Shown here one piece after another: positions 37,601-54,925 of a DNA stretch of 64,000 bases. The first letter of the stretch is position 1. Each line of letters begins with the position of its first letter. A program made the translations under genes and the position numbers. This DNA comes from a virus (Duplodnaviria; Caudoviricetes), in IMG/VR virus record IMGVR_UViG_3300025875_000010, positions 1 through 64,000 of that record; one strand, given 5' to 3'. Under the pieces are notes generated by a model. That model ran no database searches, was not told where the DNA came from, and was given only the letters and a program-made list of their open reading frames with translations.

Positions 37601-38148
37601 TACTGTTCCTCTGACCTTTTCAAGACAGTCAAGTTGTCAATATGCTTTCCGAATGGATCAAATGTTGGTGTGACTCCTTGAACTTCAAATACCGTTGGCA
37701 ATCCGGTCTCTTCCTCTTGCCACAAGATTGCATCATTACTACCTCTAATGTTTGTAACAAGCTGTCTGCGGTTTAACACATATTTAGCAGGAAATACCAT
37801 CTGAATTGCTTCAAATGGCATATACTTTCCATCTAGAAAGTTTTCATTGTTTGCTGATGAGCGAAAACCTACTTCTGGGAACCCACGCACGTAACATTCA
37901 ATATCGAATCTATTAGTAGTTGGCTTCCATGTGGTCCCTCTATCTCTTTTGATAGGTGTCGCCACGGCAGCATCTTCTCGCCACTCCTTTTTAATGCCTC
38001 CGGTCTCGGGGTCCTGCACAACTTCCCAGTGTCCACTCTTAATTAAATCCTCAGCACTAGGAGTTTCTTCCGCAGCATTAACTGAGGCATACTCATTAAG
38101 AACAGTTGCCTTCATATTAAATCGAACACCTAAAAGAGTATGAATCAT
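37600..38148 (-). CDS. Head-to-tail stopper (head closure)-like protein
   Basis: Position; VFEVQGVTPTFDPFG. Confidence 0.6.
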   Translation of the reverse strand: MIHTLLGVRFNMKATVLNEYASVNAAEETPSAEDLIKSGHWEVVQDPETGGIKKEWREDAAVATPIKRDRGTTWKPTTNRFDIECYVRGFPEVGFRSSANNENFLDGKYMPFEAIQMVFPAKYVLNRRQLVTNIRGSNDAILWQEEETGLPTVFEVQGVTPTFDPFGKHIDNLTVLKRSEEQ

Positions 38149-39023
38149 ATAATCACCATGCCCTGCCTGCGATATGGCTCTAGCAGATCATCCGCACGCT
38201 TGTTGCCCGTTCCACGGAAGGCACCGGCAGAATACATTAGATTCCAATCTCCGGACTTCATGGATTCTAGGTAACGATCACGGTAGATTGTCTCACCACT
38301 TCCATAGTCTTTAGCTAGCAGCAATGCGGCCTGACGGATATCATCTGGTACTGAATAATATCCCCACTCTCCCTCAATTTCATAAGTAGTGCCCGAACGG
38401 AACTTCTTCCAATAGGAATCTGGAACTACGATGACTCCACTAACAAGCTGAACATTATCGATATAGTCCTCTGGTGGCATTTCTTTAATGGTGAAATAGT
38501 TCTTATTACCTACGTATAGGTACCAACCATCGTTAGAGGTATTAAAATATCCAACCGGGCCTCCCTTGATTCTATGGACGCGCATTAGACGTTTAGGCAA
38601 AGCGATCTTTTTTTCTCCATTGCCCACCACGCTGCATGTTCCTATTTCATAACCAAAGTCTTGCTGAGTGTAAGTTTCTATAAAAATACGAACCTGCTCT
38701 TCCAAATCCTTCAACTCGCCATCAGCAATATGAACATCTTGGAAAACCGTTTTTAGATCACTCAATGAAACTAGCGGTGTAATAACTTCAACTGAGGTTG
38801 TCCTCTTAAAAGGATTGTCCCACGTTCCGCCGACCCACTCAATATCCAATCTTCCATCAAACTGAGTCTGGACATAAGTTAACTCTAATTCATAATTTGG
38901 GGCTGGCATTAAACCGACCTGCCTGTGAATCTCTTGACCATCCTTATAGACAATTGCAGTCAATGGACCGGGAAATGGATGTTCAAAAGTTACAGTTGCA
39001 TTAGTGTCACGGTAAACGCTCAT
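38145..39023 (-). CDS. Head-to-tail adaptor
   Basis: FIETYTQQDF...EGEWGY..VPDDIRQAALLL...TGN..ADDLL..YRR. Confidence 0.75.
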   Translation of the reverse strand: MSVYRDTNATVTFEHPFPGPLTAIVYKDGQEIHRQVGLMPAPNYELELTYVQTQFDGRLDIEWVGGTWDNPFKRTTSVEVITPLVSLSDLKTVFQDVHIADGELKDLEEQVRIFIETYTQQDFGYEIGTCSVVGNGEKKIALPKRLMRVHRIKGGPVGYFNTSNDGWYLYVGNKNYFTIKEMPPEDYIDNVQLVSGVIVVPDSYWKKFRSGTTYEIEGEWGYYSVPDDIRQAALLLAKDYGSGETIYRDRYLESMKSGDWNLMYSAGAFRGTGNKRADDLLEPYRRQGMVII

Positions 39024-39029
39024 TCTTAT

Positions 39030-39058
39030 ATTGTAATGGCTCCTTAGTTATTTATCAA
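39030..39058 (-). promoter_or_regulatory. Leaderless promoter
   Basis: TTGATA-N17-TACAAT-N6-ATG(39023). Confidence 0.7.
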
Positions 39059-42000
39059 ACTGTGCGATTGACTGTAGCCTCAACAACACCAGCCTGTAGC
39101 TTAGCTCCAAGGGGACCATACGTATACAAACCAATATTATAATTACTACCCCAACGCTCACCGGCTGCCCAGTACGTCACACTAACTCCCGCATCATTAA
39201 GAACAGTGTATGCAGACTGACCGACAGCATTCCACTGGGCCGTAGCAGGCCAACCGATTTCACCAATAAGACCCTTTTGGTTGTGCGTAGCAAGCCATTC
39301 AGTAAAATCATTAAGCTCATCTATTACACGAGCAGATAGATTTGCATAACCACGATTGACCGCATCAGTATTTACCACATCATAAGATTCTGCGTAAACT
39401 CCATTATTAGCAGGATCAAAGTAATAATGAGCCTCGTATACGGTCTTATTGGCGGGATCAGTAATCCAAGGGTTACCGTTCTTTAGTGCCCATTCTTTAG
39501 CTCCGCTCCAAGAATCACCGGCAATATAAATTATTCTGGTGTCACCAGTTCCTCTAATTGCAGTTACAGCAGCCTGGGAAGCAGACTTCCACGGAGTCAA
39601 CCCGGCGGCGCCCAAAGAGCCTTGAGCAAAATTATCAATATCAACAGTGTATGATGTTCCTGAAACAGCATCATTAGAGTCAATTTGAACCGCAAAAGCG
39701 TTAGACGTAAAGTCAGAATCATAGGTAGCCACGACGTTAACCGCAACTCCTGGAATTAACTGAGATACCGTTGCGCCCGTGTCTGCGCGCGTGTGTGTGA
39801 TGTTAGGTGCTGTCACCCACTGGTAGCTAGAATTCTGATATTGTGGCATGGCTCTCCATACACCCGCTGTACCGGCTGCTAGTGTCACCTGAATAGAAAG
39901 TGATCTTCCTGTCAACGTGCCTCCCAGCTTTTGCCCAGCGTCATCACGACGAATTGCCAAGAATCCAGATGAAGATGCAGTTGCAACAAGACGAAGTTTT
40001 CCGCTAGTACTACTTGCTGTTACTGTACCGCCACCGCCGGTCCATCCCTGAATACTGGTAGCCCAATCGTATCTTGTGGTGCCAGTAAACGCGCCAACGG
40101 GTGCGGGCGGAAGATCATGAGGCTCATTCATCAAACCCCATCCCACAATAGAAGTCTTACCAGCAAAACGCTGCTGCAACTTCGTCCACACATCAGCAAA
40201 ATTTGCATCAGTCAAGCCTGCTCCAAACATAACCTCAGTATCATCAGTCTTTACAAATCGACCATAATTATGGAGATCAGGAATAACATACAAGCCAGCA
40301 GCAGATGCTCTATCAATGGCATCTGATAGTTCTGTGATGCCTGGCTCAGACAACGCTCCACCGAGAACATTCTGTACTCTTTCCCAACGGAAAGGCATTC
40401 TTACTACCTTGTGACCTCTTGAATAGTAATAATCAAGGGATGCCCTAGAGTCATAAGAATAATCTGTGCTGTATACTCCCGGCAAAGAAAGTGGTTCATG
40501 AGCAAACTCTCCACCGGCTGAGTTAACTCCACGTAGAGTTACGGGAACGGCAGAAGCAGTTAAGGCAGCAGTTGCTGTTGCCTCTCCACCAACGCCAACA
40601 GCTTTAAGTTCAATAGTTTGTCCTGCTGTCATCTGATACGAAGTTAACTGAGTATCAATCTCAACCCACGCACCGGCGTTTGCCCTGATGTAAAGCAAAT
40701 CGGGCAATCCGGTTACCGTGAAGGTTACCAAACCAGAAGCGTTAATTTTTAGATTGTTAATTGTTGGTGGAAGAATTCTGTGAAACTTAGGCCAATAAAT
40801 TCCCAGATTAGGAACATTGTTAGCATTGTCTACACAGCTTACAACTAACCCTGTACCGGCCAGACCGGGGTGAGCCTTGTAAGCATAAGTTGCCAATCCC
40901 GAAGCAACAGGCTTTTTGAAGTGGGCTGTATTCTCATAAGCTTCCCTCTCGGAATAAGCCTTAAGCGTACACTGAGCAACAGTCTTATCAGCAAACCCTC
41001 CACCCCAAAATGGAGTGTACTGAATGCGAAGAGTTCCGTTTGGATTAATGGATCTTATAACTGCATCATAACCAGGATCATCTTTAACGTGATCGCCAAT
41101 CTGAAAAGTTGGTGGTGGTGGTCTGTATCCACCGCCCGGAGCTACTACAAAATTACCATTGCCATCCTTGGCGCTAACTCGCACTCCACCGCGCATAAAT
41201 GGGAAGCTTCCAACACAATCTACAATAACATACCGGCCGTCGGACCTTTTGTGTACACTCCCCTCAGAGGTGTCTGGATTCTCAGAAATTACAAAACCTT
41301 GAATTGGATCTGTTGACCAACCTCCAAAACCATTGTAATATTCTATGTTTGCTTGTGTACCTATTCCGGTAAAGTTAGCTGTAGACCAACGGCACAAGAC
41401 CCATCCACTGAATCTATTAATAGCAAATATATGAATGTAGCCACCTTCGATGGATGGGCTGAATACTGGACGGAAGCCAGTATCTCCACTAGCATAAAGC
41501 AATGTAGATACCCAAGTTGTAATATTAGTCGTCTTGGCATTTGGCACCCTGTGAACGCACCATCCCCACTCTCCACCTAACGGATTATTTGATTGAACGC
41601 GCATAGAGAGAACATACAGGTCATTTCCAATAAACACTCCGTCCATCGGCCACGAATAATGTGTATCTGAAATTGGGAACCAACGCAAGCTAGGACTCGT
41701 TGCCTTGTAGAATGTTACCGTAGAAGTAGAAAGATCAGGACCAGACTGAATAGCTAAACTGTCGTTAGTCATAACTGATCCGTTACGATCTACTGGAATT
41801 CCTGTTGCTGAATCTCTCCAATAGGTATCAGCAAACAGCCACAAAACCCGGCCGGTTCCATCATTAAACGGAATGCTTCTAGCAGAGTCTGCACCCAGCC
41901 ATCTGCCAGTATTACCGGTCCTTGGATCAAACTTAATATCTAGATCAGGAGCAGGCTGAACATTATACGCTTGTGTGTGTGTGTACACCATTTCATTACC

Positions 42001-42078
42001 GGCGAAAATTCTATCAATTCGATTAGCACCCGCTTTGAGTTTACCGAAAGTATTGCTGCCCATTTTAACTGTTGGCAT
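39055..42078 (-). CDS. Multidomain virion glycosidase: DUF4185/DUF5005-like beta-propeller plus GH5 with an inserted CBM-like domain
   Basis: WLGADSARS...VLWLFADT...YAYKAHP...YWPKF propeller; RGVNSAGGEF, VRMPFRWER, DLHNY, LMNEPH, YEAHYYFD and IGEIG GH5 motifs. Confidence 0.8.
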   Translation of the reverse strand: MPTVKMGSNTFGKLKAGANRIDRIFAGNEMVYTHTQAYNVQPAPDLDIKFDPRTGNTGRWLGADSARSIPFNDGTGRVLWLFADTYWRDSATGIPVDRNGSVMTNDSLAIQSGPDLSTSTVTFYKATSPSLRWFPISDTHYSWPMDGVFIGNDLYVLSMRVQSNNPLGGEWGWCVHRVPNAKTTNITTWVSTLLYASGDTGFRPVFSPSIEGGYIHIFAINRFSGWVLCRWSTANFTGIGTQANIEYYNGFGGWSTDPIQGFVISENPDTSEGSVHKRSDGRYVIVDCVGSFPFMRGGVRVSAKDGNGNFVVAPGGGYRPPPPTFQIGDHVKDDPGYDAVIRSINPNGTLRIQYTPFWGGGFADKTVAQCTLKAYSEREAYENTAHFKKPVASGLATYAYKAHPGLAGTGLVVSCVDNANNVPNLGIYWPKFHRILPPTINNLKINASGLVTFTVTGLPDLLYIRANAGAWVEIDTQLTSYQMTAGQTIELKAVGVGGEATATAALTASAVPVTLRGVNSAGGEFAHEPLSLPGVYSTDYSYDSRASLDYYYSRGHKVVRMPFRWERVQNVLGGALSEPGITELSDAIDRASAAGLYVIPDLHNYGRFVKTDDTEVMFGAGLTDANFADVWTKLQQRFAGKTSIVGWGLMNEPHDLPPAPVGAFTGTTRYDWATSIQGWTGGGGTVTASSTSGKLRLVATASSSGFLAIRRDDAGQKLGGTLTGRSLSIQVTLAAGTAGVWRAMPQYQNSSYQWVTAPNITHTRADTGATVSQLIPGVAVNVVATYDSDFTSNAFAVQIDSNDAVSGTSYTVDIDNFAQGSLGAAGLTPWKSASQAAVTAIRGTGDTRIIYIAGDSWSGAKEWALKNGNPWITDPANKTVYEAHYYFDPANNGVYAESYDVVNTDAVNRGYANLSARVIDELNDFTEWLATHNQKGLIGEIGWPATAQWNAVGQSAYTVLNDAGVSVTYWAAGERWGSNYNIGLYTYGPLGAKLQAGVVEATVNRTV

Positions 42079-42081
42079 ATG

Positions 42082-43305
42082 TCACCCCTGAATCACATAA
42101 AGTGTTGTAGCTACCTTGGTTGCCAGGGCATCATAAGCGGACTGAGTAATTGATCTTACTTCTGTGATTCCTACTCCCGTAACCTTGGTGTCAACTAGCG
42201 GCTTAAGGCTAGCTGGTGTAACTGCTCTGAATTGCTCTGTACCGGTATTTGTCTCGGTGACAGAAGCCAATTCAATAATTCCAGCTACCGATGTAGTAGC
42301 TGGGCGAACGGTTGGAGCCGTAGCTGTACCCGTTAGGTCACCGGCAAGTTGAATTAGACCCGGCGTTGTTGTAGTTGCATTTGGTGGGGTATAATCTCCG
42401 GCTTTGGCTGTACCGGCTATAGTGCCAATCACCAAACTAGAAGTACCAGCGCCAATAGTAGTTCTAACTGTGGCCGCATCGACAGAAGTAATGATGGTAC
42501 GACCGATGGGTGTTGAGTCAGTAATATTAGCAGACGTAACTGTACCACCGGTTCCACCTCCTGGCGTTGACCATGTGCCATCACCTCGAAGATATGTAGT
42601 TGCATCTCTTGTTCCTGTGGCTGTCAAATCAGTAACGACGTGAGTGTGAGCTAAAGGAGTTCTAGCATCACTAAGTCTCGAATCATTACCGGCCGCTGCC
42701 GTACCTGCCGTTGTACCAATAACAAGACTTGATGTTCCAGAGCCCGTAGCTGTACGCACAGCAGCAGCATCGACAGCAGTTAATATGGTTCTACCAATTG
42801 CTGTTGAATTGGAAATATCTGTCGCCGTATGAGTGTGAATAGTGTTTGCCTTACCAGCCAAACCGGGAACCGTTGGTGCTGCTGCTGTACCGGCCAAGTC
42901 ACCGGCAAGTTGAATAATTCCCTTTGCTGTAGTTGTAGCGTCAGTACCCCCAGCACCCGTTTGCCCCTGGGGAATTCCTATGTTAAGAGTCTGATTCGGC
43001 GCGGCGCCCGTGATGGTCGCAGTTGCGCTAGCACCAGCAGCCAAAGTGCTTACCGTACCAATCGACAAAACATTAGTTGGGCCAGTTTCTCCGATAGCAC
43101 CTCTAGGAATTCCTAGAGCAAGCGTGCGGGCGGAAGGAGTACCCCCTAATGTTACTGTGGGGGTAGCTCCCGCCGCTAACGCGCTAGCAGAGGCGCTGGT
43201 AATTGTACCGGCAGGTCCCTGCGAACCGGTAGGACCAGCATATCCAGGCACCTCAACGGTGATGACTTCAATGTCATCTGGGCTGTATGGAATCGGCATG
43301 GTCAT
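42082..43305 (-). CDS. Collagen-like fibre protein
   Basis: G-X-Y runs, TIG..TATITG.APNQTLN..IP.G repeats, HTH fibre repeats, GIIQLAGDL, and C-terminal TQSAYDALATKVATTLYVI. Confidence 0.8.
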   Translation of the reverse strand: MTMPIPYSPDDIEVITVEVPGYAGPTGSQGPAGTITSASASALAAGATPTVTLGGTPSARTLALGIPRGAIGETGPTNVLSIGTVSTLAAGASATATITGAAPNQTLNIGIPQGQTGAGGTDATTTAKGIIQLAGDLAGTAAAPTVPGLAGKANTIHTHTATDISNSTAIGRTILTAVDAAAVRTATGSGTSSLVIGTTAGTAAAGNDSRLSDARTPLAHTHVVTDLTATGTRDATTYLRGDGTWSTPGGGTGGTVTSANITDSTPIGRTIITSVDAATVRTTIGAGTSSLVIGTIAGTAKAGDYTPPNATTTTPGLIQLAGDLTGTATAPTVRPATTSVAGIIELASVTETNTGTEQFRAVTPASLKPLVDTKVTGVGITEVRSITQSAYDALATKVATTLYVIQG

Positions 43306-43311
43306 GACCTG

Positions 43312-43340
43312 ATTATACCTGCTCCATGATTATTTAGCAA
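43312..43340 (-). promoter_or_regulatory. Leaderless promoter
   Basis: TTGCTA-N17-TATAAT-N6-ATG(43305). Confidence 0.78.
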
Positions 43341-43343
43341 AAA

Positions 43344-46300
43344 TTATGAATAGGTCTTGCTATTAGTGTAGGCCACAACATTTGAGTTATTATATGCTGT
43401 GAACTTTCTAGTAACAGCCGTTCCCGTATCAGTAATCTCAATAATGCTGTACTGCTCAACCGTTCCGCTAGATGGGCTTGGTCCCCAAGTCAATGTGTTA
43501 ACCTTTTTCGAAGCACCCTGATGAAGAGGTGAAGAATGCATAACAGGAATACCAAGTGAATTGGTTCCATCGTCATATCCAACGGCGTGCATATCACCAG
43601 CCAAAATTTCAACGTTCTTGCCGCTAGCCTTAATAAAGTTGGCTAGCTCAGTACGCTCTGTGTTGTAACTAGGCCACTCATCATCAGCATCAGAATAATT
43701 TGAGAATGGCTGATCATTTCCCCAAAAGATTAGAGGCTCCGTTGCAGCCGTAATCGTATTCTTAAACCAAGTCTTCTGCTCAGCACCCAAAACAGTCTTT
43801 GAGCTATTGTCCGTAGCCGTTTGTACTGACTTGTAACTGCGGTTGTCGGTAACAATAAATCTAACTCTACCAATAACATACGTGTGATAGATTCCACCAG
43901 TAGCCGATGGCAATGAGTAATGCGGTACGCGCTTACGATATGCAGACTGAGCATATGGCTTAACAGTCGCTCCGGTGCCGCCAGTTCCATATGAATTGTT
44001 TGGACCGAAATCGTGATCACTCCACGTATAATCAAAAGCCATTTCCTTAAGCATTGGCCCAGAACCTGATGCGCTCAGCATTGTGTTAAACTTATTGTGG
44101 TAATTAGTCTCAGATGCTGTTGCATTGTCCGCATAGTGAAAATCTCCAACAGACAAGAAGAAGAGTGGAGAGTGAGCCTTAATTCTACCATAAGCTGCCG
44201 AAACACCATTTGCGTTGTCACATGAGGAAAAGGCAAACTTAAAGCTACTTGCGCCCTGAGGTGCTGTCCTCAAAGATTGAATCTTAGCTTTATCAATACC
44301 GGACCCTAGCTGCATTGCATAGTAATACTTAGTATTAGGTGTTAAGCCTGTAATTGTAGACTTCACATAACCGGCGCTATCTGGTGTTGAGGTAGTGGCA
44401 GCTAGAATTGGATTAGACATATCCGCTGAGGTGCTGACAGCAAGCTTCGCGGAAGGAGCACCTGAAGCCGTAGCTGATGCAGTAAATCCTGTAGACGTTA
44501 AGCCACCAGCCCACATTGTAACAATTGAGCCCGTTGGGTTTCCTGTACTGGTCTGGTTATGATAAGGGTTGGTAACCCCTGTTGGTACCGGCCAACCGGT
44601 ATGCCAGTGCCACAAATCTCTAATTTCTGTAGATGCATATTCCGTGGCAGAGGCACTTGTTTCATTGAATTGGTTATAGTTACCCACCTTTTGGTACCAA
44701 CTTGAACTTCCAGTAGATACCAAAGCATTTGAAGTAGCTGCTGGTACATTCATATTATTGTAGTAAAATCTTGCTTCACCAGCAACTATTTCTAGCATGC
44801 CCTCAAACTCTGTATTAGGAACATAATTATCGGCAAATACTACAATCTGACTTCCATTAGCCCTACCGACCAAACGGCACGTTCCATCACCATTGCTGGT
44901 TGTACGAATAGCAAGGCGCTCAGTGTCTCCATTATGAAGCTGAGCAATACATACCTCTGAATCATCCGGCGGAAGGTGTGTTACGCGCGCACGGAAGTGT
45001 AGCTGATGAACACCACCATCTTTTGCATCGAAGCCCATGTTTGTCCCGTTCAAATCAAGCTCTCTCAATTCAGAGCGCGCGAAGCTAGAGCCTGATGTTG
45101 TTGGGCCGTCAGCCCTCGCCCAAAATTGCACTCTATTAATTCCACCACTATTAACAACCTTGAAGTAAGGATCTTCGTTGTAACCGGCGGCAATGTCAGC
45201 CTGAGTCTTTGTGACAAACGTACTTCCACCATTAGGTGCAACCTGAACAGAAAAATGATTTTTTCCAGGTGCTGTGCCAATATTCAAAACCGTAGCTGGT
45301 GTTCCCGTTGGTGTTGGAGCTGGATCAACGGGTGTGGTTGGTGTTGTCGTAATGGCCGGTGAATAAACAGACTCGATGGCCTTATTGAATACCGTGGGCC
45401 AGCCCGTGTGCCAGTGCTCCAAATCTCTTACAATAACTCTAGAATATTCAGAAGGAAGATCCGATGTAGAGTTGCTTCTATTCTGAACACCAACCCTGAA
45501 CGACCAAGAAGCTGATCCTGTAGAGAGCAAAGCTGTTGAAGTAATAATTGGATCTCTCATGCTACCGTAATAAATTCTAAGCTGTCCATCAACAACTCGA
45601 ATTGAAAACTCAAATTCTGCATTAAGAACCAGAGGGTCCATTAAGCGAGGTGTGACCAAAGAACCATTAATAAACGCTCCCAAAGATACCACACCATTAG
45701 ATAGATATGCTCTGATTGATGCTCGGTCTCCCGAACCATTATTAAGCTCTGCAATTACTGTCTCGGGGTTGTTAGGTGGAAGATGAACAATTCTCATCTT
45801 ACCTCGGATGTAATGTGTTCCTACAAATGGGTTAAAAGTATATACTGAGCCATTAGAATTAACTTCTTTTAACTCCGTTCCAGTGAAATTAGAACCGGGA
45901 AGCTTCGGACCATCCAGTCTAGCACTCATCTGAACACCTCTCGTTTCAGATGGTGCTAATCTATAGAAGTCTACACTAGACATTACTGGACTTAAAAAGC
46001 CTAGAGCTTGACGAAGAAGGCCAACCTTTCTGGATACTACCGCATCCCTAGCCACGACAGACTTAGCTAGAAGTGCTAAATGATCAGACATTAAGAAACA
46101 GTGCAAATCTGCAATATCTTCTGTTACATTATATCTTGCCCAATCGCTCATGTAACCGGCCGGGTGGTCACCAGTAAAGGATGCTCCAAATGCAGAACCA
46201 GACGGGTTCTGTGCAGAAAAATTAGCCTGCATTGCAGCATCCCATACTGTATTAAGATAAATGGCAGCGTGCATGTACTCGTGATGGAACTGCTTTCTAA

Positions 46301-47831
46301 ATACCCTATCTCCCCAACGAGAATCAAGAAAAATAGTTGTTGTTGCCGCAGACCAAATGCTTGCTCCTGGACTGTTCATGTAACTAACACCATCAGTAAT
46401 GGCTACTGTTGACAACGGTGTTGATTGGACTCCCGCTGATGGATACTTGGCAACTTCCTGCACAAGAGCGCCAACCCTATTCTTAATGGTTTCCAAATCA
46501 GTCAGTGCCGTCCAAGAAATATTTTCTACATTAGAGCCTGTGGCCGGAACGGTCACATTGAATCCATATGTTGCTTCAATTGGATCAAGAGCAGCTAGAA
46601 CACCGTCTAAGCTGGTTGCCGCATTAACTGCCGAAATAATAGAAAATGTATTGTAGTACCTCTTAGCTGGTTCATGATACGAAGCATCAAAGTATGGAGA
46701 TAATGCAAATCCCGCACTAACCTCAGAGCCTGTCTTGATAACGGGCGCACTTAAGCCATCTCTTGACATTGCCAATGAGAAGTGATTCATTCCATCCAAT
46801 GGATCAAGATGTAGTAGCTGAGCTGGAGATGCAGAAATATGCTTGGCATGATCTACCGGACGAATTCTACCGTTGCCATAAATTCCCAAAACCTGCAAGG
46901 GCACCATGGCACCATTTCGCCAAATATAAAAATCTGTTTCAGTTACAGTTCCACTTAATGAAGTCCGAATAGTTTGAGCCGCTGATTCTGCTGAGCGGTT
47001 TCCTGCGGCGTCCACAGCAGATACCGTGTAGCTATACGCAGTGTTGGCTGACAAACCAGTGTCAACGTAGGTCCTATTGGTTAGTGCTGGGGCAATAGTA
47101 ACCCCGTTGCGCTGAACCCTATATGAAGCTACACCTACATTATCAGTGCTAGCATTCCATGAAATGCTAGTGCTAGTTGGATCGTTTGCAAATAAAATAA
47201 TTCCGGAAGGCACGGTTGGTGCGGTCGTATCAACCTCGGGGGCAGCGGAAAGATCGGTAGAAGCAAATCTGGCAATTCTTAAGCTGGGTGCTGTAGTTCC
47301 GCTGGAATAAACTCCCACGCCTCGCTGAGTGGCTGGCACTGCACCAGAAGCATCTTGAGCCTGAACAACTAGAACATCATTAACATAGCCACGAAGGATA
47401 ACGGCACTAGATGTTTCTTCAACTTCTAGCTTCATCTTTAATCCTTCGATCCTAGAATCGGTAGGAGTATTTCCACTTCCTAGCATGGTCATCGTAGTGC
47501 TGTTGGCTTCCTTGCGACGAATGGAAAACGCTGTTCCCGTACTTCCAGTCAAAAAGAATCCATAAAAAGCTTCGGTATTAGAATTAGAAGTTCCCAATTC
47601 TGGGAGGCGAACACAAGGCCCAGTGAAGCTTCCACCGTAAGTGTTTCCCATCTGAAAAGCAGATGAATGATTTCCTGTAGCCATAACAACCGGTGCGCGC
47701 TCAACATATGTATTTGTACCGGGCGGAACTATCGCACCCGACTTAAGGAGCATGCGGCTAGAATAGCCAGTCCAACCGTTTCCAGGTGAACTGGCGTCGC
47801 CCCTATCAAACTCGTCATTAAAAACTGTCAT
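43344..47831 (-). CDS. 1495-aa multi-enzyme virion protein: ConA-like, Fn3, degenerate PL7 split by a zincin, intact PL7, PhoD-like phosphatase
   Basis: DTTAPTVP...VDAAGNRS (Fn3); HEYMH; RSELRE, AQLH and YQKVGNYNQ (PL7); FAFSSC, VGDFHYAD, WSDHDFG, DNRSYK, LGAEQKTW and GDMHA (PhoD). Confidence 0.82.
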   Translation of the reverse strand: MTVFNDEFDRGDASSPGNGWTGYSSRMLLKSGAIVPPGTNTYVERAPVVMATGNHSSAFQMGNTYGGSFTGPCVRLPELGTSNSNTEAFYGFFLTGSTGTAFSIRRKEANSTTMTMLGSGNTPTDSRIEGLKMKLEVEETSSAVILRGYVNDVLVVQAQDASGAVPATQRGVGVYSSGTTAPSLRIARFASTDLSAAPEVDTTAPTVPSGIILFANDPTSTSISWNASTDNVGVASYRVQRNGVTIAPALTNRTYVDTGLSANTAYSYTVSAVDAAGNRSAESAAQTIRTSLSGTVTETDFYIWRNGAMVPLQVLGIYGNGRIRPVDHAKHISASPAQLLHLDPLDGMNHFSLAMSRDGLSAPVIKTGSEVSAGFALSPYFDASYHEPAKRYYNTFSIISAVNAATSLDGVLAALDPIEATYGFNVTVPATGSNVENISWTALTDLETIKNRVGALVQEVAKYPSAGVQSTPLSTVAITDGVSYMNSPGASIWSAATTTIFLDSRWGDRVFRKQFHHEYMHAAIYLNTVWDAAMQANFSAQNPSGSAFGASFTGDHPAGYMSDWARYNVTEDIADLHCFLMSDHLALLAKSVVARDAVVSRKVGLLRQALGFLSPVMSSVDFYRLAPSETRGVQMSARLDGPKLPGSNFTGTELKEVNSNGSVYTFNPFVGTHYIRGKMRIVHLPPNNPETVIAELNNGSGDRASIRAYLSNGVVSLGAFINGSLVTPRLMDPLVLNAEFEFSIRVVDGQLRIYYGSMRDPIITSTALLSTGSASWSFRVGVQNRSNSTSDLPSEYSRVIVRDLEHWHTGWPTVFNKAIESVYSPAITTTPTTPVDPAPTPTGTPATVLNIGTAPGKNHFSVQVAPNGGSTFVTKTQADIAAGYNEDPYFKVVNSGGINRVQFWARADGPTTSGSSFARSELRELDLNGTNMGFDAKDGGVHQLHFRARVTHLPPDDSEVCIAQLHNGDTERLAIRTTSNGDGTCRLVGRANGSQIVVFADNYVPNTEFEGMLEIVAGEARFYYNNMNVPAATSNALVSTGSSSWYQKVGNYNQFNETSASATEYASTEIRDLWHWHTGWPVPTGVTNPYHNQTSTGNPTGSIVTMWAGGLTSTGFTASATASGAPSAKLAVSTSADMSNPILAATTSTPDSAGYVKSTITGLTPNTKYYYAMQLGSGIDKAKIQSLRTAPQGASSFKFAFSSCDNANGVSAAYGRIKAHSPLFFLSVGDFHYADNATASETNYHNKFNTMLSASGSGPMLKEMAFDYTWSDHDFGPNNSYGTGGTGATVKPYAQSAYRKRVPHYSLPSATGGIYHTYVIGRVRFIVTDNRSYKSVQTATDNSSKTVLGAEQKTWFKNTITAATEPLIFWGNDQPFSNYSDADDEWPSYNTERTELANFIKASGKNVEILAGDMHAVGYDDGTNSLGIPVMHSSPLHQGASKKVNTLTWGPSPSSGTVEQYSIIEITDTGTAVTRKFTAYNNSNVVAYTNSKTYS

Positions 47832-49858
47832 TACGTCTCCTTAAAAATTATTGTGCCTTCTGGTGTTCCTGCTGGGGGAGAACTATCTGCTGGGCCTAGG
47901 ACTACAAAACCATTTGAAGTTCCACTATTTCCTCCAACCTTCTTTCCGTCTACCGGCGAAGTCGGCTTGCCTAGCTTAATTCTCAAGTCCCCATCTGGAT
48001 CGACCCATAAGTGATACTGACCAATCATAGGATGAACTGAGCTGTATTCGGACTGGAATGGTGGAACTACCGGAACCTTTACACCATTGATCGTAATATA
48101 TCCAAAGGAGTAAGTTACTGCATCGGACGGTGCCTGGATTGTAGCAGAGGCAGTTACAATATTTGATGACAATGTACCAGAAGTAACCCACGCCCTAATC
48201 GTACGTGGAGTCGTCTCTTCCACTGAATTATACACATATGTTCCATTGGCTGAGGCCGTGTCATTGATTGTACCATCTCCCCAATCAACATGATAAACCA
48301 AGGGAGTATTATTTGGATCGAACGATCCATCAAAACTGTAGGTAACCTCTAATGGGCCAACTCCTACTGTTGGAATTGGGCTTAAAATCTTAAAGGCCAA
48401 TACCGGAGCACCATCAGGAGCAATAATAGTTCCTGTTGACTTGGTTGCCGTAGAAGTTAATCCATTGGCATCTGTTGTCGTAACACTAATATCAAATGAT
48501 CTAGCCACTGTAATAGGATAAGTGTGACTTGCGGTCTTGGTTGGTTCATTTACCTGCTGAACCGATGAACCATCACCCCAGTTAATCTTATGGTTAGCCA
48601 TAGCATTTGTACCGGCCGTTGATGTAACTGTAACGGTAGCGGTCTGTGCGTTTACGGAAACGTTAAAGTTCGCTACCGGAGGATTTATAGTGACAACCGG
48701 ATCGGGAGTAGTGCCGCCGGGTGAGGTGACTGTTCCAGCAACCTTTCCCCAAGTGCCGTTTCCGCTAACTAACCAATCTCCCCATCGAGGGAGAAGTCTT
48801 CTAGCGTTGCGCTCTGACACCTGACTAGGAACCGGCCAATTAAGACCAGGGTATAGGTGATTAGCCACCCAAGGCTGAATGTGCATCCACTTATTGAATT
48901 CAGGTTCAGCGGGCAGCCATAGAGGCACATTCGATAGGTTCAGGTTGTCGCGCATGAAAAGAATGTTTCTCTTGATTGCTGAGTTTACCCAACTAGCTGC
49001 GTCAGCATATCCTGCATTAACTAGAATTGGAATAAGAACTAGCGCACCATCGATGCACTCATACTGGTAGTGAATTCCGTCACCGGTTCTCAATGGTGGC
49101 CCCCCAGAACGGGATGCGTCTTCTACGTTTGCACCAGATAGAACCTTATTTGCAACCTCGGCATTAATTACACCCTGTGAGCTTGGGTAGGTTGCCACGT
49201 CCCAACCAGAATTGAAAGATCCAGTAGCAATGAAGGTATTTTGAATAGTAGTATCTCCCAACCAGCGCTTGTAGAATCTAATCATTTCATCCAGAGTTCC
49301 TTGTACCGTAGTAGGCGCTCCCGATGGAACACCGGCCAAAGTAGTGATGCCGTGCTTTTTTAAATACAGCAAAATGATGATAGAAGATACACGAGCGCAT
49401 GCTCCCCAGTTGTTACCCGAAGTCTTACCACATTTGTATAATGAATTCCAGTTGGCCTGACCTGGCATCGTTGCATGAATTGCATAACGCCCCCATTCTA
49501 CCATCGTATTACGAGGGGCAGACTTTCCTGTGCTACGATGTGGGTCCATTCCTACAAGGTCGGCAGCCAAGAAGTAAACCCCCCAGGTGCGGTATGGATT
49601 TAACGGTTGATCGGTAGTAAGTTCAGTACCCATAGCCTCGATAATTTCAGATTCGACTTTAGCCTTGCCTAGACCGCCGCCGTCCTTGGAATATCTGATT
49701 GCAATATCCAATACATTCTGAGGGTGCAATTGGTCAACAACACCCATGTTTGCTGCGCCCGGATCGGCATTAGACTTTGAGGCCAATGAGGTCCAAGCTC
49801 CACCGCTGGTTGGCAATGAAGCTAGCGTTGTTTCCTTATATAGTAGATAATCTGGCAT
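47831..49858 (-). CDS. Alginate-lyase-like (alpha/alpha toroid) protein with two PKD domains
   Basis: LPTSGGAW...AADLV...NNWG...WLGD...YQYECIDG; PKD NWGDGS and DWGDGT; C-terminal YHLWVDPDGDLRIKLGKPTS. Confidence 0.65.
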   Translation of the reverse strand: MPDYLLYKETTLASLPTSGGAWTSLASKSNADPGAANMGVVDQLHPQNVLDIAIRYSKDGGGLGKAKVESEIIEAMGTELTTDQPLNPYRTWGVYFLAADLVGMDPHRSTGKSAPRNTMVEWGRYAIHATMPGQANWNSLYKCGKTSGNNWGACARVSSIIILLYLKKHGITTLAGVPSGAPTTVQGTLDEMIRFYKRWLGDTTIQNTFIATGSFNSGWDVATYPSSQGVINAEVANKVLSGANVEDASRSGGPPLRTGDGIHYQYECIDGALVLIPILVNAGYADAASWVNSAIKRNILFMRDNLNLSNVPLWLPAEPEFNKWMHIQPWVANHLYPGLNWPVPSQVSERNARRLLPRWGDWLVSGNGTWGKVAGTVTSPGGTTPDPVVTINPPVANFNVSVNAQTATVTVTSTAGTNAMANHKINWGDGSSVQQVNEPTKTASHTYPITVARSFDISVTTTDANGLTSTATKSTGTIIAPDGAPVLAFKILSPIPTVGVGPLEVTYSFDGSFDPNNTPLVYHVDWGDGTINDTASANGTYVYNSVEETTPRTIRAWVTSGTLSSNIVTASATIQAPSDAVTYSFGYITINGVKVPVVPPFQSEYSSVHPMIGQYHLWVDPDGDLRIKLGKPTSPVDGKKVGGNSGTSNGFVVLGPADSSPPAGTPEGTIIFKET

Positions 49859-49870
49859 CTGTCATTCTCC

Positions 49871-50653
49871 TTAAATTTCTGTTACTATCATATAAACTTG
49901 TGTTCCATCAGGTAGATTGGCTACGTCTGGATTAATTCCATAAACCGCGCCGCCACCCCCACCACCAGGCTGCGTTGACATTTCATCAATTCTCGAACTA
50001 AGAACATTTTGAATATTGTCAATGTAAATCTTTGGAGCCACTTGACGATCAGTTACAGGATCATTATCTATATGAATCTGACCAATGGTAAACGTATTAT
50101 CTGTGGCTCTTTTTACTAATGTTCCTCCACCGCTAACGCTAGTCGCAGCAGTCAAATCGGAATGGGTGTGATTACCTGCTGCCGCTGTCGCACTTGTGGT
50201 ACCCAAAACAACTGCCCCAATAATTGCTCTTACTGCCGGGGCATCTGCTGCGGTTAAAATACTTCTACCGGTTACAGACGAATCTGTAATGTTTGTTGAA
50301 ATAACTGCTCCGGCTGATCCGGCATCACCGCGAGGAATAGTTAAATTGAGAGAGTAATTTGGAGCGCTGCCCGTTATGGTGGCTGTAGCATTACTTCCCG
50401 GCGCTCCGGTAGAAACCGTACCGATTGTCATTGCTGCTGCTGGACCCGCAACTCCCGGATCACCCTTTGGAAGAACTAGATTAAGCGTTTGGTTTGGTGC
50501 CGTGCCAGTAATAGTTGCCGATGCACTTGCACCACCAGCGACTGTTCCTATTGTAAGAGTGTTTGAGAGACCATTTGGTCCTGGGTCTCCTCTAGGCCCT
50601 ACTGGACCCGGAGCGCCTGGTAATTCTATTGTTATTACCTGCGCTGGCATCAA
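49871..50653 (-). CDS. Collagen-like fibre protein
   Basis: GAPGPVGPRGDPGPNG; repeats shared with 42082-43305; APKIYID motif. Confidence 0.8.
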   Translation of the reverse strand: MMPAQVITIELPGAPGPVGPRGDPGPNGLSNTLTIGTVAGGASASATITGTAPNQTLNLVLPKGDPGVAGPAAAMTIGTVSTGAPGSNATATITGSAPNYSLNLTIPRGDAGSAGAVISTNITDSSVTGRSILTAADAPAVRAIIGAVVLGTTSATAAAGNHTHSDLTAATSVSGGGTLVKRATDNTFTIGQIHIDNDPVTDRQVAPKIYIDNIQNVLSSRIDEMSTQPGGGGGGAVYGINPDVANLPDGTQVYMIVTEI

Positions 50654-51045
50654 TCATCAACCTCGCCATGAACAACTACGTCACCGGCCAAATATGTCCT
50701 AGCATCACCGTTAGGTTCCACTATCTGAAAATTCCAGATGTAATCACCCGGTGGAATTGTCTTTGTAATTGAGGTTGGCATGTACAAATCTACCTTATTG
50801 GTATCACGAATAGTACACGTGTAATTATACTGAATTGGGCCAGATAGCGATGCACTAATCATTGCTTCCGCAGTCAATCCATTCAGATTAATAGGCTGTA
50901 GAACACCACTTGCGTCTTTGGCCTCCATGACAATTGTAAACTTTTGAGAGTCACCCTTCCAGATGGTCATGTTGTAGTTGCTTGGCAACTTTTGCATGCC
51001 AAAATTACCAGTGGGTACTTCCCCTGGAAAAATTACATCGGCCAT
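50650..51045 (-). CDS. BppU-N-like Ig-fold fibre anchor protein
   Basis: YNMTIWKGDSQKFTI...PINLNG..A...PPGDYIWNFQI...TYLAGDV.V. Confidence 0.6.
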   Translation of the reverse strand: MADVIFPGEVPTGNFGMQKLPSNYNMTIWKGDSQKFTIVMEAKDASGVLQPINLNGLTAEAMISASLSGPIQYNYTCTIRDTNKVDLYMPTSITKTIPPGDYIWNFQIVEPNGDARTYLAGDVVVHGEVDD

Positions 51046-51055
51046 TTGCTCACTC

Positions 51056-51343
51056 CTACTGTATTCTTAAAATTCCGCGAGTTATCTCCCGGTCATCTAG
51101 ATATAGTGTATAGTACATCACCGTAAATTCAAAATGAGTAGATTGCTCGGCAAGCACTCTCCACACTGCACCGGTCCTCAATCTTGAGAGGCCACCGTTC
51201 TTTACGGTAAACTCTCTGGCAAAAGAGCCTCTCTCCAAGATAACCTTAAAATCTCCATTGGGCAAGACGATAGATTTACCCTGTGCATTCTTGAAATTAA
51301 AGGTTTCCTCGAAGCTCTCGCCCTTTGTCAGAGTAAAATTCAT
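51056..51343 (-). CDS. Small Ig-fold protein similar to the downstream anchor
   Basis: LTKGESFEETFNF...YYTLYLD...TRGILRI. Confidence 0.55.
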   Translation of the reverse strand: MNFTLTKGESFEETFNFKNAQGKSIVLPNGDFKVILERGSFAREFTVKNGGLSRLRTGAVWRVLAEQSTHFEFTVMYYTLYLDDREITRGILRIQ

Positions 51344-51777
51344 TAGCCTGCGTAGAACTCTCTGAGTTCTCTTGGTGTAGCTACTCTGAACCCGCCGTCT
51401 ACCTCAACCAAATAATCTGCATCCTCTTCCTTTACAAGAGCATATGGGTGCTGACGATTGAACTTGTATCCTCGAATCTCATAAGAGAAGTTGGTACGGA
51501 TCATCTTGACGACGACATATTCGTCCTCTTCCTCTTCCACGACCACCTCTTCTTCCACTGTTCCGGTAAAATCCTCAGGAATTAAAGCAATTTCCTCTTC
51601 TTCTATTTCAGGCTCTAGAGTCTCCTCATACATAAGCCAAGTAACTCCCATCTCACCAAGCTCGGTAAGAATATCGGCCTTCTTTGTCTTGCCGTCCAAG
51701 TCAACTGCAAACTGCCTTGCAACCTCTTTTAGCTCAGGAATAGTTAATTCTTTAAAACTCTTATCTCCTAGTGCCAT
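51343..51777 (-). CDS. Rho-N/HeH-like domain acidic protein
   Basis: LTIPELKEVARQFAVDLDGKTKKADIL followed by an acidic tract. Confidence 0.6.
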   Translation of the reverse strand: MALGDKSFKELTIPELKEVARQFAVDLDGKTKKADILTELGEMGVTWLMYEETLEPEIEEEEIALIPEDFTGTVEEEVVVEEEEDEYVVVKMIRTNFSYEIRGYKFNRQHPYALVKEEDADYLVEVDGGFRVATPRELREFYAG

Positions 51778-51843: not shown

Positions 51844-51877
51844 GAAAGACCGGGAAGGTTTCCCCTCCCGGTCTTTC
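51844..51877 (-). terminator. Terminator after the capsid gene
   Basis: GAAAGACCGGGA-N10-TCCCGGTCTTTC, a 12-bp stem. Confidence 0.8.
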
Positions 51878-51888
51878 ATGGACTGTTA

Positions 51889-52890
51889 TCAGGCTCCTGT
51901 ACCGACTCCAATGTTACGGACGATTACGAATGCCTCAGTGTTCTCGATCTGAGTTCCTACACGGCAGAACATGGTGTACTCAATTGTGTCCTTCTTGGCT
52001 GCGTACTGGCGTACGACCTTGATTTCACGCTTGACTCCCCATAGAAGGTTCTGTGGGAAGGTTAGCCATAGCTCACCGTGGTCACCTGTAGCACCAGAGT
52101 AGCTTCCGTCCTGGGTCTCATCGAATAGTGGAACCTCCTGTAGAGGCACTCCGAATAGACGACCAGCGTTGAATCCAGCGGCTCCGTCAGGTACAACCTG
52201 TGCGTTAGTGTCTCCATAAGTTGCAAGATTAACGTCAAGCGTACGAGAGTAAAGCCAATCCTGAATCAAGTTGCTTCCTGCGAAGAACTTCAACTGTCCT
52301 CTGCGCTGCATGAACTTACGTGGCATTGCCTTAATTGCAGCGTTAGCTGCGGCAAGGTTAAGTGGCTCTCCACCGTTGTCAATGATGTGGGCTGCACCAT
52401 CGGTTGTACCGTTGATAGCAAGCTTCCTCCAACCATCGAAGACCTTTAGGGTCTTGTCAGAGCTGGTGGTATCACCATTAATTGCCAAGTCCTCCAAGTC
52501 CATTCCGGCCTGAGTTGCCATTAGGCGCGCGATGTGATCCTCCAATGCCTCACCCTCAAGGTTGTCCTCAAGTGTTTCGGTTGAAAGCTCCCAGTCAAGA
52601 CGTAGCTTGTGGGTACGCATGTTGATCTTAGAGAAGAATACACCCTGGTTTTCACCAGTGTCTACCGCCTCTACAGCACCACGTAGCAAGCGCTGTCCGA
52701 CACCGATACGATCAATTTCCTGCTCAGTAGAGCGCATGCGGATTGTGCGAACCTGACCACCTAGGACTGTTGAGTCCCACATGTAGTCGATGAACTGATT
52801 TGCCTGCTCCGGAGCCAAAAGGCCAGAGCCAGGTGGGGAACCAATCTCGGTAGAGACGATTACCTTTTCAAGTAGTTCGTTGTTGCTCAT
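51889..52890 (-). CDS. Major capsid protein (HK97 fold)
   Basis: GLLAPEQANQFID...LSTETLEDNLEG...EDLAINGD...FGVPL...GVKREI; strong RBS. Confidence 0.93.
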   Translation of the reverse strand: MSNNELLEKVIVSTEIGSPPGSGLLAPEQANQFIDYMWDSTVLGGQVRTIRMRSTEQEIDRIGVGQRLLRGAVEAVDTGENQGVFFSKINMRTHKLRLDWELSTETLEDNLEGEALEDHIARLMATQAGMDLEDLAINGDTTSSDKTLKVFDGWRKLAINGTTDGAAHIIDNGGEPLNLAAANAAIKAMPRKFMQRRGQLKFFAGSNLIQDWLYSRTLDVNLATYGDTNAQVVPDGAAGFNAGRLFGVPLQEVPLFDETQDGSYSGATGDHGELWLTFPQNLLWGVKREIKVVRQYAAKKDTIEYTMFCRVGTQIENTEAFVIVRNIGVGTGA

Positions 52891-53543: not shown

Positions 53544-54293
53544 GTTTTCACCTCCCTCAGTTGATTCAAACTTCTCGATAATGGTGTTAACCTTTTCTGC
53601 CTTGTCACCGCCATCGCTCTCAAACCATCCAATGTTCTGCATCGGTGCGCCACAATCGACGCAATCCTTGGTCTCGTCCGAAGCCACAACTGCTACCGGC
53701 TCATCACCCTTCTTGCAGTAGAAAACATTTTGAAGTTCCATCTTGGCTAGCATTCCGTCTACTTCGGTGGAACCGTCAGCAGCCTTCTGAATGCTAAGAA
53801 TGTTTGATAGCTGATTGGCTGGGTTATCAACAAGTGATAGCTCTACCATTTCGTAATCCTTGATGTATCTAATAGCCTTACCGGCGTCCTTGTTAAATTT
53901 GCTTTCAGCGTCCTTAACGTTACCGCCGATGCTGAAACCGGTTAGAGTGCCATCGTTAACCATTTCCCAAATGTGCTCTGCACCCTTGGAAATATATGCG
54001 TCAACGTAAATTCCGGTATAAGTCTTTTTAGTCTTCGTGTCAAAGAATTCTTCCTCGCGGGCGTTAACTAGCTTGCCTGCTGGAACTGGCTGATGCATAA
54101 GACGAATGTTTCCACGGAAGTTAGCAAAAGCCTTAGCTGATGCCTCCTTGGTTACAATGTCGCCGTGCAAATCTTCTGAGTCGAGCGTGGCGAAGCCAGA
54201 GACAATTCGCCTCTCCTTGTCCACCTTCTGCAATGGCATGGTGATGCGAATGTTATCGCCTTCACTCTGCCAATTAGCCTTTTCTACTCTCAT
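52956..54293 (-). CDS. Capsid maturation protease with fused scaffold
   Basis: RRIVSGFAT..SED.HGD...IRLMH...LTGFSIGG...ELSLVDNPAN; acidic/coiled-coil C-terminal half. Confidence 0.88.
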   Translation of the reverse strand: MRVEKANWQSEGDNIRITMPLQKVDKERRIVSGFATLDSEDLHGDIVTKEASAKAFANFRGNIRLMHQPVPAGKLVNAREEEFFDTKTKKTYTGIYVDAYISKGAEHIWEMVNDGTLTGFSIGGNVKDAESKFNKDAGKAIRYIKDYEMVELSLVDNPANQLSNILSIQKAADGSTEVDGMLAKMELQNVFYCKKGDEPVAVVASDETKDCVDCGAPMQNIGWFESDGGDKAEKVNTIIEKFESTEGGENMAEKKNEEDVNTPEDVVENTDTQVESAEEVSPKGDSETIAPEGEEADTATEVKDENVSVTGTGAEKVEEAEVLNQDAPKDGDVEENPLTKMFDDLRKSIESTLEDHGSKNAEALAQATEKFEKGLEDLATKHDELSNRFGTLTEKFNGVQEKLGAVEKSGAVRKSADLGGSEEESSLQKSNGMWRGTIFSMDGLR

Positions 54294-54925
54294 AGGTAAA
54301 TGTTAACACCGTTTTCTTCAAAAGCAAAATCAAACACATACGTACGGTAATCAGCAGAGCTTCGGTTGCCCTTTGATGAATTACACGATCTACAAAGCGG
54401 TTGCAAATTATCAATCAAATTGCTTCCACCTTGCGTAATCGGCACTACATGATCTATAGCAATATTATCTCTGGAGCCGCACGCCAAACATTTCTTTCCA
54501 TAAGCTAGGAAAATAGCCTCAATAACATCCGCTGTAATAACACCACTTGAAAGTTTTTTCTTAGAATTATAGTTGTGCCAAGCTGCTTTGTGTCTTTCAG
54601 GGTTTGCCTTATATGGTGGATTAAGACTATTGCGCTGCCTCTTCATCTCTCGATAGCAAAGGCGGCAGCGGCTCTCTCTACCATCCGTAGAGTTAGTTCG
54701 TAAGTTAAATTCTACTAATGCTTTTACCTTTTGACAAGAAATACATTTCTTGTCTGTTGCGCGGGCACGGTTCTGAACAGCAACCACTCTTAACACACTC
54801 TTGGCGTCTTTATTTTTTCTACAAATTTTGCAAACCGTTTGCAATCCATCTTTAGCTAAAGAGTTTCGGCCAAAATTTTCAAATAACTTAGACTCCATAC
54901 AAACCGCACATATTTTAGTTATCAT
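54290..54925 (-). CDS. HNH homing endonuclease between portal and protease
   Basis: Two CxxC..DG..CxxC repeats; CLACGS...IDHVVPITQGGSN...LCRSCNSSKG; 4-bp overlaps on both sides. Confidence 0.9.
   Translation of the reverse strand: MITKICAVCMESKLFENFGRNSLAKDGLQTVCKICRKNKDAKSVLRVVAVQNRARATDKKCISCQKVKALVEFNLRTNSTDGRESRCRLCYREMKRQRNSLNPPYKANPERHKAAWHNYNSKKKLSSGVITADVIEAIFLAYGKKCLACGSRDNIAIDHVVPITQGGSNLIDNLQPLCRSCNSSKGNRSSADYRTYVFDFAFEENGVNIYL

Follow-up and report, generated by a model that had tools for sequence, protein, structure and literature searches.

Phages are thought to use accessory collars and fibres to adjust their adsorption to glycan-coated hosts, and this step is poorly understood for phages of mycelial, matrix-embedded actinomycetes. 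The IMG/VR virus record IMGVR_UViG_3300025875_000010 raises the question of what a block of about 12 kb, filled with fibre-like and enzyme genes, is doing between the capsid gene and the head-tail adaptor gene of a tailed phage. Here, we analysed 64 kb of this 77-kb contig (46% GC), hereafter the window. Our best explanation, to which we give a probability of roughly 0.5, is that the block is an enlarged, exchangeable and non-essential collar-and-fibre cassette in the capsid-adaptor slot, with enzymes added to it. This slot is hypervariable in Stanwilliamsviridae-like (Streptomyces cluster BE-like) siphophages, and the window comes from an uncultured relative of these phages. The core of the initial annotation is supported by fold, synteny and domain content: the block is an accessory appendage cassette that encodes an Ig protein of anchor type, two fibres and, embedded among them, enzymes against envelope polymers.

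The capsid-adaptor slot is hypervariable

The structural genes of the window all lie on the minus strand, in the order portal, HNH endonuclease, prohead protease, major capsid protein, the block, adaptor, neck and tube genes, and a tape measure of 2169 residues; all coordinates of the slot given below refer to that strand. Upstream, the slot is bounded by the major capsid protein (51889..52890; phrog_1623, 3e-91), which is 66-69% identical to those of the approximately 130-kb cluster BE Streptomyces phages (Stanwilliamsviridae: Muntaha, Comrade, and Gilson). Downstream, it ends at the head-tail adaptor, which bears an additional Ig-like domain at its N-terminus (38145..39023; phrog_442, 1e-26). 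Between the capsid side and the adaptor, seven consecutive minus-strand open reading frames (ORFs), tightly packed or overlapping, make up the block of about 12 kb that the initial annotation had delimited. A conserved 144-residue gene with a SAP/HeH-like N-terminus and an acidic linker (51343..51777; phrog_9487, 1e-32) also intervenes.

The synteny survey that had been proposed as a check of the block was run with the capsid protein as query. A total of 80 loci were fetched, and 52 of them hold both the capsid and the adaptor genes. In 33 of the 52, the slot was minimal (0.57-0.8 kb) and contained the 144-residue gene only; a homologue of the 131-residue Ig-like gene of the window was present in none of these 33. 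Of the 19 expanded slots, 18 carried such a homologue (1.7-9.4 kb) and one did not. The window slot (12.9 kb) was the largest among the slots seen. Because the minimal state exists, including in a record of 128,338 bp, the cassette is considered dispensable. The 144-residue gene, on the other hand, was found in nearly all related loci extending past the capsid gene, including all minimal slots, and is therefore not part of the variable cassette. Furthermore, the window phage has its own complete set of tail-tip genes, among them those for a conserved 1081-residue and a variable 833-residue protein, which argues that the cassette is an add-on.

The content of the expanded slots was recurrent as well. 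In every cassette read, the Ig gene was followed, usually directly, by a fibre gene whose product has an xVxVxVxLPG pattern of alternating hydrophobic beta-strands and then a Gly-X-Y (GXY) run. Counting the window and Muntaha gp26, this N-terminal pattern was present in 18 fibres from 14 loci. The closest relatives (L005, L006, L009, L012, and L087) have the 95-residue gene of the window block and two fibre types, one with the motif at once and the other with an extension of 12-25 residues, like the two window fibres (A and B) described below. A comparable order, namely Ig gene, collagen-like fibre, one more gene and then a gp6-like connector (labelled by eye), occurred in a high-GC lineage (L105). 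The initial annotation had noted that enzyme genes follow each fibre; this holds in the window but is not a conserved rule among relatives, which have two fibres without enzymes, or enzymes with other partners.

Two further slots were recorded. In L087, a viral contig of 77.7 kb, the slot holds four tandem paralogous small genes (9781-12292) with a YTKQTW...RLN..E.GI motif, a type of start that is typical of trimeric fibre stems. The Muntaha slot (L001:18226-19946, gp26-gp27) encodes a protein that is anchored by beta-strands, lectin-like in the middle and collagen-like at the end, together with a 252-residue partner; both genes are annotated as hypothetical.

A predicted collar protein and two paralogous fibres

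The 131-residue protein (50650..51045) has, according to its AlphaFold2 model (pLDDT 84.5), the Ig-like p132/BppU-N fold behind a disordered stretch of 18 N-terminal residues. The best structural match was p132 of T5 and DT57C (Z 12.8-12.9, root-mean-square deviation 2.5 over 114-115 residues). Weaker matches were obtained to the N-domain of a Douge baseplate chain (Z 11.2), to baseplate chains of 80alpha and NF5, to the neck collar of Bas63/Sf14 (Z 8.8), to the Ig domain of the R4C adaptor (Z 8.8), and to the N-domain of TP901-1 BppU (Z 8.6/6.9). The structures ranking next after p132 are likewise rings that anchor fibres, at baseplates and necks. In BFVD, the model matched a protein labelled 'BppU N-terminal domain', and the fold is common there, standing alone or as the N-terminus of fibre proteins. 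At the sequence level, the protein falls into its own PHROG family (phrog_1084, 3e-13), and its match to the T5 p132 family was marginal (phrog_3304, E 0.0023). A scan of viral contigs with the single 131-residue sequence gave no match; an alignment-based scan found homologues. The Ig family comprises 11,901 cluster representatives at E<=0.001, so that this family of Ig-like ring proteins is very large, and it is almost entirely without annotation. Its distant members were met on contigs too short to show an informative gene context, and the one isolate not from Streptomyces carries no annotation.

The initial annotation had counted two Ig-fold anchor proteins. The fold match bears this out for the 131-residue protein, but for the 95-residue small beta protein encoded next to it (51056..51343, with a 1-nt overlap with the upstream gene) an Ig fold is only suggested. 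The latter had no Pfam or PHROG match, and its homologues are confined to the closest cassette-bearing loci. Comparison of its family with that of the 131-residue protein by hhalign was weak (probability 43%, E 2.4e-4), and hhalign found no similarity between the 95-residue family and the adaptor family. It might be a second collar subunit.

Fibre A (260 residues, 49871..50653) comprises an N-terminal VITIELPG strand, a GXY run and repeated beta modules of about 45 residues, and matches PHROG tail-protein families (3e-17). Its start overlaps the stop of the 131-residue gene. Fibre B (407 residues, 42082..43305) opens with an extension that precedes VITVEVPG and GXY; beta modules and DUF5907 repeats come next, and the tip is of the Phage_tail_C type. 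Among its matches are minor tail proteins of actinophages. Fibres A and B are paralogous to each other over approximately 250 residues (blastp, 2e-37), and the common VIT(I/V)E(L/V)PG N-terminus reported for them was confirmed, with QVITIELPG before the GXY run of fibre A and EVITVEVPG before that of fibre B. Their description as collagen fibres stands in part: GXY triplets do follow the shared N-terminus, but there are only 5-6 of them in fibre A and 5 in fibre B, and fibre A matched Pfam Collagen (PF01391) below threshold (E=1.4).

Translational fusion of fibres to the enzymes was considered separately. For fibre A, readthrough into the following enzyme was rejected in view of two in-frame stops and a clear ribosome-binding site. 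At the junction of fibre B with the 1007-residue enzyme (42076-42084), the stop and the start read TGA-CAT-ATG in the same frame, and single-stop readthrough joining the two is possible but unsupported.

Three signal-less multidomain enzyme proteins

Signal peptides were absent from all three enzyme proteins of the block. The first, of 675 residues (47831..49858), starts straight with a predicted catalytic domain of PL5-like alpha/alpha type (residues 1-365), followed by two PKD-like domains (approximately residues 400-590) and a C-terminal tail. It had been described as an alginate-lyase-like/PKD protein. Feature and structure neighbours in the Atlas agree with this (scores of 0.88-0.90 for residues 1-365 against PF05426 clusters, structure neighbour TM 0.71), but hmmscan gave no match to the PL5-type alginate lyase family PF05426, and the PKD_4 match was weak (7.7e-5, 23.1 bits, under the Pfam cut-off of 27 bits). 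The protein also carries a precomputed PF26986 (Cap_depo) tag.

The second protein, of 1495 residues (43344..47831), is a chimera in which a putative lectin-like N-domain is followed by an FN3 domain (46953-47243), a region with an HEYMH motif at residue 517 (46269-46283), two PL7 copies and a PhoD phosphodiesterase domain (43371-44549). PL7 copy 1 (45417-45950) is degenerate, with GTELKE and AELN at the motif positions. Copy 2 (44610-45275) looks active: it matches PF08787 (5e-29), and the R-x-E-L-R, Q-x-H and Y-x-K-x-G-x-Y-x-Q motifs are intact (RSELRE, AQLH, and YQKVGNYNQ). The two copies matched PDB 1uai at 6.5e-17 and 1.3e-8. The PhoD domain (PF09423, 3.6e-19; phrog_13624, 2.7e-72) has kept its metal-ligand motifs SC, GDFHY, WSDHD and GDMH. 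PL7 and PhoD, as named in the initial annotation, are thus borne out with their motifs, but the zincin named between them is a bare HEYMH motif, and no Pfam, PDB or NCBIfam peptidase match was found around it. A homologue search with residues 1-850 was dominated by FN3 matches and uninformative for residues 300-850. A separate metallophosphoesterase gene of 302 residues is present at 18817-19725, outside the structural module.

The third protein, of 1007 residues (39055..42078), consists of a 42-residue N-terminal leader, a DUF5005-type domain (40585-41952) and a GH5 endoglucanase-type domain (39130-40542) with a beta-rich insertion of about 170 residues (39595-40101). The GH5 assignment was upheld by Pfam Cellulase (PF00150, 9e-33), by PDB 4lx4 (1e-46, in two stretches) and by intact catalytic residues, namely R560, N651-E652, H884 and E940, with E652 as the acid/base Glu of the NEP motif and E940 as the nucleophile Glu. 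The nearest cellular counterpart of the insertion-bearing GH5 was in an Actinomycetota metagenome-assembled genome, which fits an actinobacterial host. The propeller/arabinan label of this protein traces solely to a precomputed DUF5005 tag; its N-terminal half had no Atlas model or match, and tblastn with the whole protein gave only two weak GH5 matches. Neither the PL7-PhoD nor the DUF5005-GH5 fusion had a full-length match in the phage collection searched.

Enzymes on the particle or released at lysis

In the mechanism that we propose for the collar-and-fibre cassette, the 131-residue protein, perhaps together with the 95-residue protein, would form a ring on the virion, most likely at the neck, where the adaptor has an outward Ig-like domain. 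Fibres A and B would be gripped by the ring through their common N-terminus and would attach to glycans on the host surface. The three co-transcribed signal-less proteins would supply the PL5-like lyase, PL7 lyase, PhoD, DUF5005-type and GH5 glucanase domains, which would cut actinobacterial wall or matrix polymers of the polyuronate or teichuronic type, beta-glucan and phosphodiester-linked teichoic-type polymers. Such cutting would help the long-tailed particle to reach the cell, or progeny to leave the matrix. As a working guess, at least the 1007-residue and 1495-residue proteins are carried on the particle. The mechanism in its entirety, a neck collar with two adhesin fibres and three multi-domain enzymes that acts as a multi-enzyme matrix cutter at the head-tail junction instead of the tail tip and is one case of a widespread, so far undescribed slot toolkit with phosphodiesterases in other lineages too, is put forward tentatively, and we consider it rather doubtful that all of its parts hold together.

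The strongest competitor, with a likelihood only somewhat short of even, keeps the collar and fibres on the virion but makes the three large enzymes soluble late proteins that are freed at lysis and clear matrix or wall polymers. Several observations on the enzymes speak for it and hence weigh against enzyme display. Homologues of the 675-residue protein (39-45% identity over residues 1-400) are encoded just downstream of holin genes in three contexts (L106:9252-11989, L109:1373-4857, and L110:1586-4290), where they close the late operons of unrelated siphophages. A strong PKD_4 tag was present in two of these three homologues and an unqualified Cap_depo tag in two of the three; the lyase-PKD family may be a lysis-linked depolymerase. 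The 675-residue protein itself opens directly with its catalytic domain. PhoD-like genes lie far from the structural genes in BE1 phages, and outside structural regions in cyanophages too. The enzymes of the window lack the N-terminal motif of the fibres, and a search for N- or C-terminal docking peptides or domains shared among the enzymes, the fibres and the 'post-fibre' proteins of relatives gave nothing convincing.

Other evidence speaks against free enzymes. Their genes are interleaved with the fibre genes in the head-neck operon, with stops and starts overlapping or nearly abutting, and the proteins contain FN3, PKD and lectin-like spacers, as displayed enzymes typically do. In other siphophages, residues 43-498 of the 1007-residue protein have a 57% identical counterpart at the N-terminus of proteins of about 1000 residues that continue into a Sipho_Gp37 domain, and these directly follow the tape measure and a 333-residue gene in Dit position; the DUF5005-type domain is thus a tail-tip-position module there, fused to a tail-tip protein. 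The 1007-residue protein has no Sipho_Gp37 domain and its gene lies before the adaptor, so it is not classed as a Tal protein. In L012, the equivalent position immediately ahead of the adaptor is taken by a 752-residue protein with a DUF5005-type domain. In the L050 slot, a PhoD domain stands behind a short beta-strand N-terminus and a lectin-like domain (LamG+PhoD), directly after an Ig-like gene, and the L042 slot encodes a 1466-residue protein with a GDPD domain. Phosphodiesterases therefore recur in the slot in these two other lineages.

Probable position of the proposed appendage on the virion

For the ring and fibres, the neck is the site that we favour, at slightly better than even odds. 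This preference comes from the T5-like adaptor with its Ig domain, from the neck structure of MindFlayer and from the conserved gene position. The AlphaFold2 model of the adaptor has a beta-sandwich (residues 1-81) followed by the adaptor core; the fold is of T5 type, with Foldseek matches to the neck chains of DT57C, T5 and Mycofy1 (E 3e-5 to 1e-4), and the N-terminal Ig-like domain is present in every member of the adaptor family. MindFlayer, a BE1 phage, has a neck structure visible by transmission electron microscopy, at which its satellite attaches.

Three considerations pull the other way. Gene order, which the initial annotation had used to place the proteins on the head or collar, is a heuristic and no rule for virion location; T5 has its p132 at the distal tail, and the fold therefore leaves the site unfixed; and hhalign detected no similarity between the collar family and the Ig domain of the adaptor family. 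The same collar-and-fibre appendage might accordingly sit on the distal tail as in T5, with the capsid-side gene position being a permissive insertion site. The closest fold matches after p132 are baseplate chains of Douge, 80alpha, NF5 and TP901-1, and the adaptor is likewise T5-like. Fibre B ends in a Pfam 'phage tail tip' motif, in line with its matches to actinophage minor tail proteins, and some curators have named the Ig gene 'tail fiber'. We nonetheless regard the distal tail as the less likely site, well behind the neck, since the position of the cassette between capsid and adaptor is kept in the distant high-GC lineage, the neck collars of Bas63/Sf14 use the same fold and that of the lactococcal phages is predicted to, the adaptor family has a peripheral Ig domain, and a BE1 relative bears a neck structure bound by a satellite phage.

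True capsid fibres appear improbable, and the capsid surface is accordingly the least favoured site for the ring and fibres. In this reading, the fibres would be trimers seated on threefold sites or in the middle of capsomers, in the manner of phi29 gp8.5 or of SPP1 gp12, which is collagen-like. In its favour, the capsid gene is immediately followed by these genes, the collagen-like run for trimerisation at the fibre N-terminus is short, and a match to phrog_5711 ('head fiber protein', 2e-23) was obtained. However, this label stems from an unverified annotation of a 131-residue mycobacteriophage protein and the match covers only the repeat motif, and the obligatory partner of the fibres has a ring-forming collar fold rather than a capsid-binding fold. 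Finally, the cellulosome-like scaffold of the initial annotation, read as cohesin-like sites on the fibres and dockerin-like modules on the enzymes, is very improbable and unsupported: all that speaks for it is the alternation of fibre and enzyme genes in a single genome, the block had no Pfam match to cohesin or dockerin families, the enzymes have no common terminal segments or domains and no sign of docking to the fibres, and relatives combine fibres and enzymes in other ways.

Other features of the window

When the 12.3-kb block was compared with phage records by megablast, no nucleotide match was found. Promoter- and terminator-like sites across the block were no more numerous than in shuffled sequence. 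Over positions 38000-50000, AT skew was positive or near zero and GC skew was weaker than in the flanks, with similar GC content; this shift is consistent with acquired genes or with a Thr/Ala/Gly-rich composition. The capsid gene is immediately followed by a short GC-rich stem-loop (51852-51869), possibly an attenuator by which the ratio of capsid to downstream expression is set. The HNH/endonuclease VII-like gene lies at 54290-54925, between the portal and prohead protease genes, where Muntaha has a different small gene. In the tail-tip module, only residues 1-174 of the 833-residue protein (20749-23250) match the 2000-residue minor tail protein family of relatives; it is probably the exchangeable tail-tip receptor-binding protein.

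Comparison with known systems

The initial annotation had proposed a candidate new system, an appendage distinct from tailspikes. To set it apart from all known appendages would be too strong, as a collar plus a fibre with carbohydrate-active tips is the design of the neck passage structure (NPS) and of the collar-whisker. In solved phages, proteins of p132/BppU-N fold assemble into rings of 12 or 18 subunits, and these clasp trimeric fibres by their N-termini.

The T5/DT57C system, with p132 and the L-shaped side fibres pb1, is similar in having an Ig-like protein that stands alone, measures about 130-140 residues and is flexible at its ends (Z 12.9). Twelve copies of p132 form a ring in T5 that is interwoven with roughly the first 50 residues of the side fibre, and a mutant without fibres lacks p132 as well; this interdependence of collar and fibre has its counterpart in the co-occurrence of the Ig gene and fibre genes in the window. 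The T5 p132 and fibre genes are adjacent, like their counterparts in the window. The accessory fibres of T5 bind surface glycans, and the same is proposed for the window fibres. T5 differs in that sequence similarity is marginal, the ring is at the distal tail around p140, the genes are at the end of the tail module, and there is one fibre type and no enzymes.

The NPS of lactococcal 936/P335 phages has a predicted BppU-N-type beta-sandwich ring, for which the head-tail connector is the proposed site. The NPS is dispensable and some two thirds of relatives possess it, and its fibres end in exchangeable carbohydrate-binding or hydrolase-like modules (PMC6669499). The window cassette resembles it as an accessory element that is found in part of a phage group only and has exchangeable distal modules. 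The NPS is, however, one polypeptide with a ring domain, a trimeric coiled coil and a carbohydrate-binding module, whereas in the window the putative ring protein of 131 residues and the fibres are separate. Moreover, the NPS fibres are coiled coils and those of the window are collagen-like with beta modules (no heptad-type coiled-coil segment was seen when the translations were read by eye, without a coiled-coil predictor), and the window adds separate enzyme proteins of 675-1495 residues.

The whiskers of Bas63 are held by a dodecamer of Ig-like subunits that is mounted on the adaptor (PMC12609058). The Bas63/Sf14 collar-whisker and the GP4 fibre-tail adaptor with Fiber-1 share with the proposed collar a dodecameric Ig-like arrangement at the interface of adaptor and head-completion proteins (Z 8.8), and an N-terminal extension of the collar holds the appendages (PMC12609058). 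Their whiskers are dimers threaded on a rope rather than collagen-like trimers, and they carry no enzymes. Virion depolymerases, including Tal extensions, tailspikes and branched multi-depolymerase baseplates, likewise place signal-less glycan-degrading domains in a structural operon, but they sit at the tail tip and have defined N-terminal adaptors, whereas the enzyme genes of the window lie in a head-neck slot and their products have no recognisable adaptor.

If the enzymes are on the particle, the cassette would provide the first enzyme-loaded neck appendage, and new depolymerases against the polyuronate, beta-glucan and teichoic-type polymers of actinobacterial envelopes could be drawn from it. 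Should they not be carried there, the slot is still a clear and easily surveyed exchange hotspot for host-range and matrix-degrading genes. Taken against these systems, collar-plus-fibre appendages with carbohydrate-active tips (T5, NPS, and Bas63) and virion depolymerases are already known, and what is new in the window is the split architecture of a separate putative ring protein and collagen-like fibres, the scale and mix of the enzymes, and the PL7-PhoD and DUF5005-GH5 chimeras.

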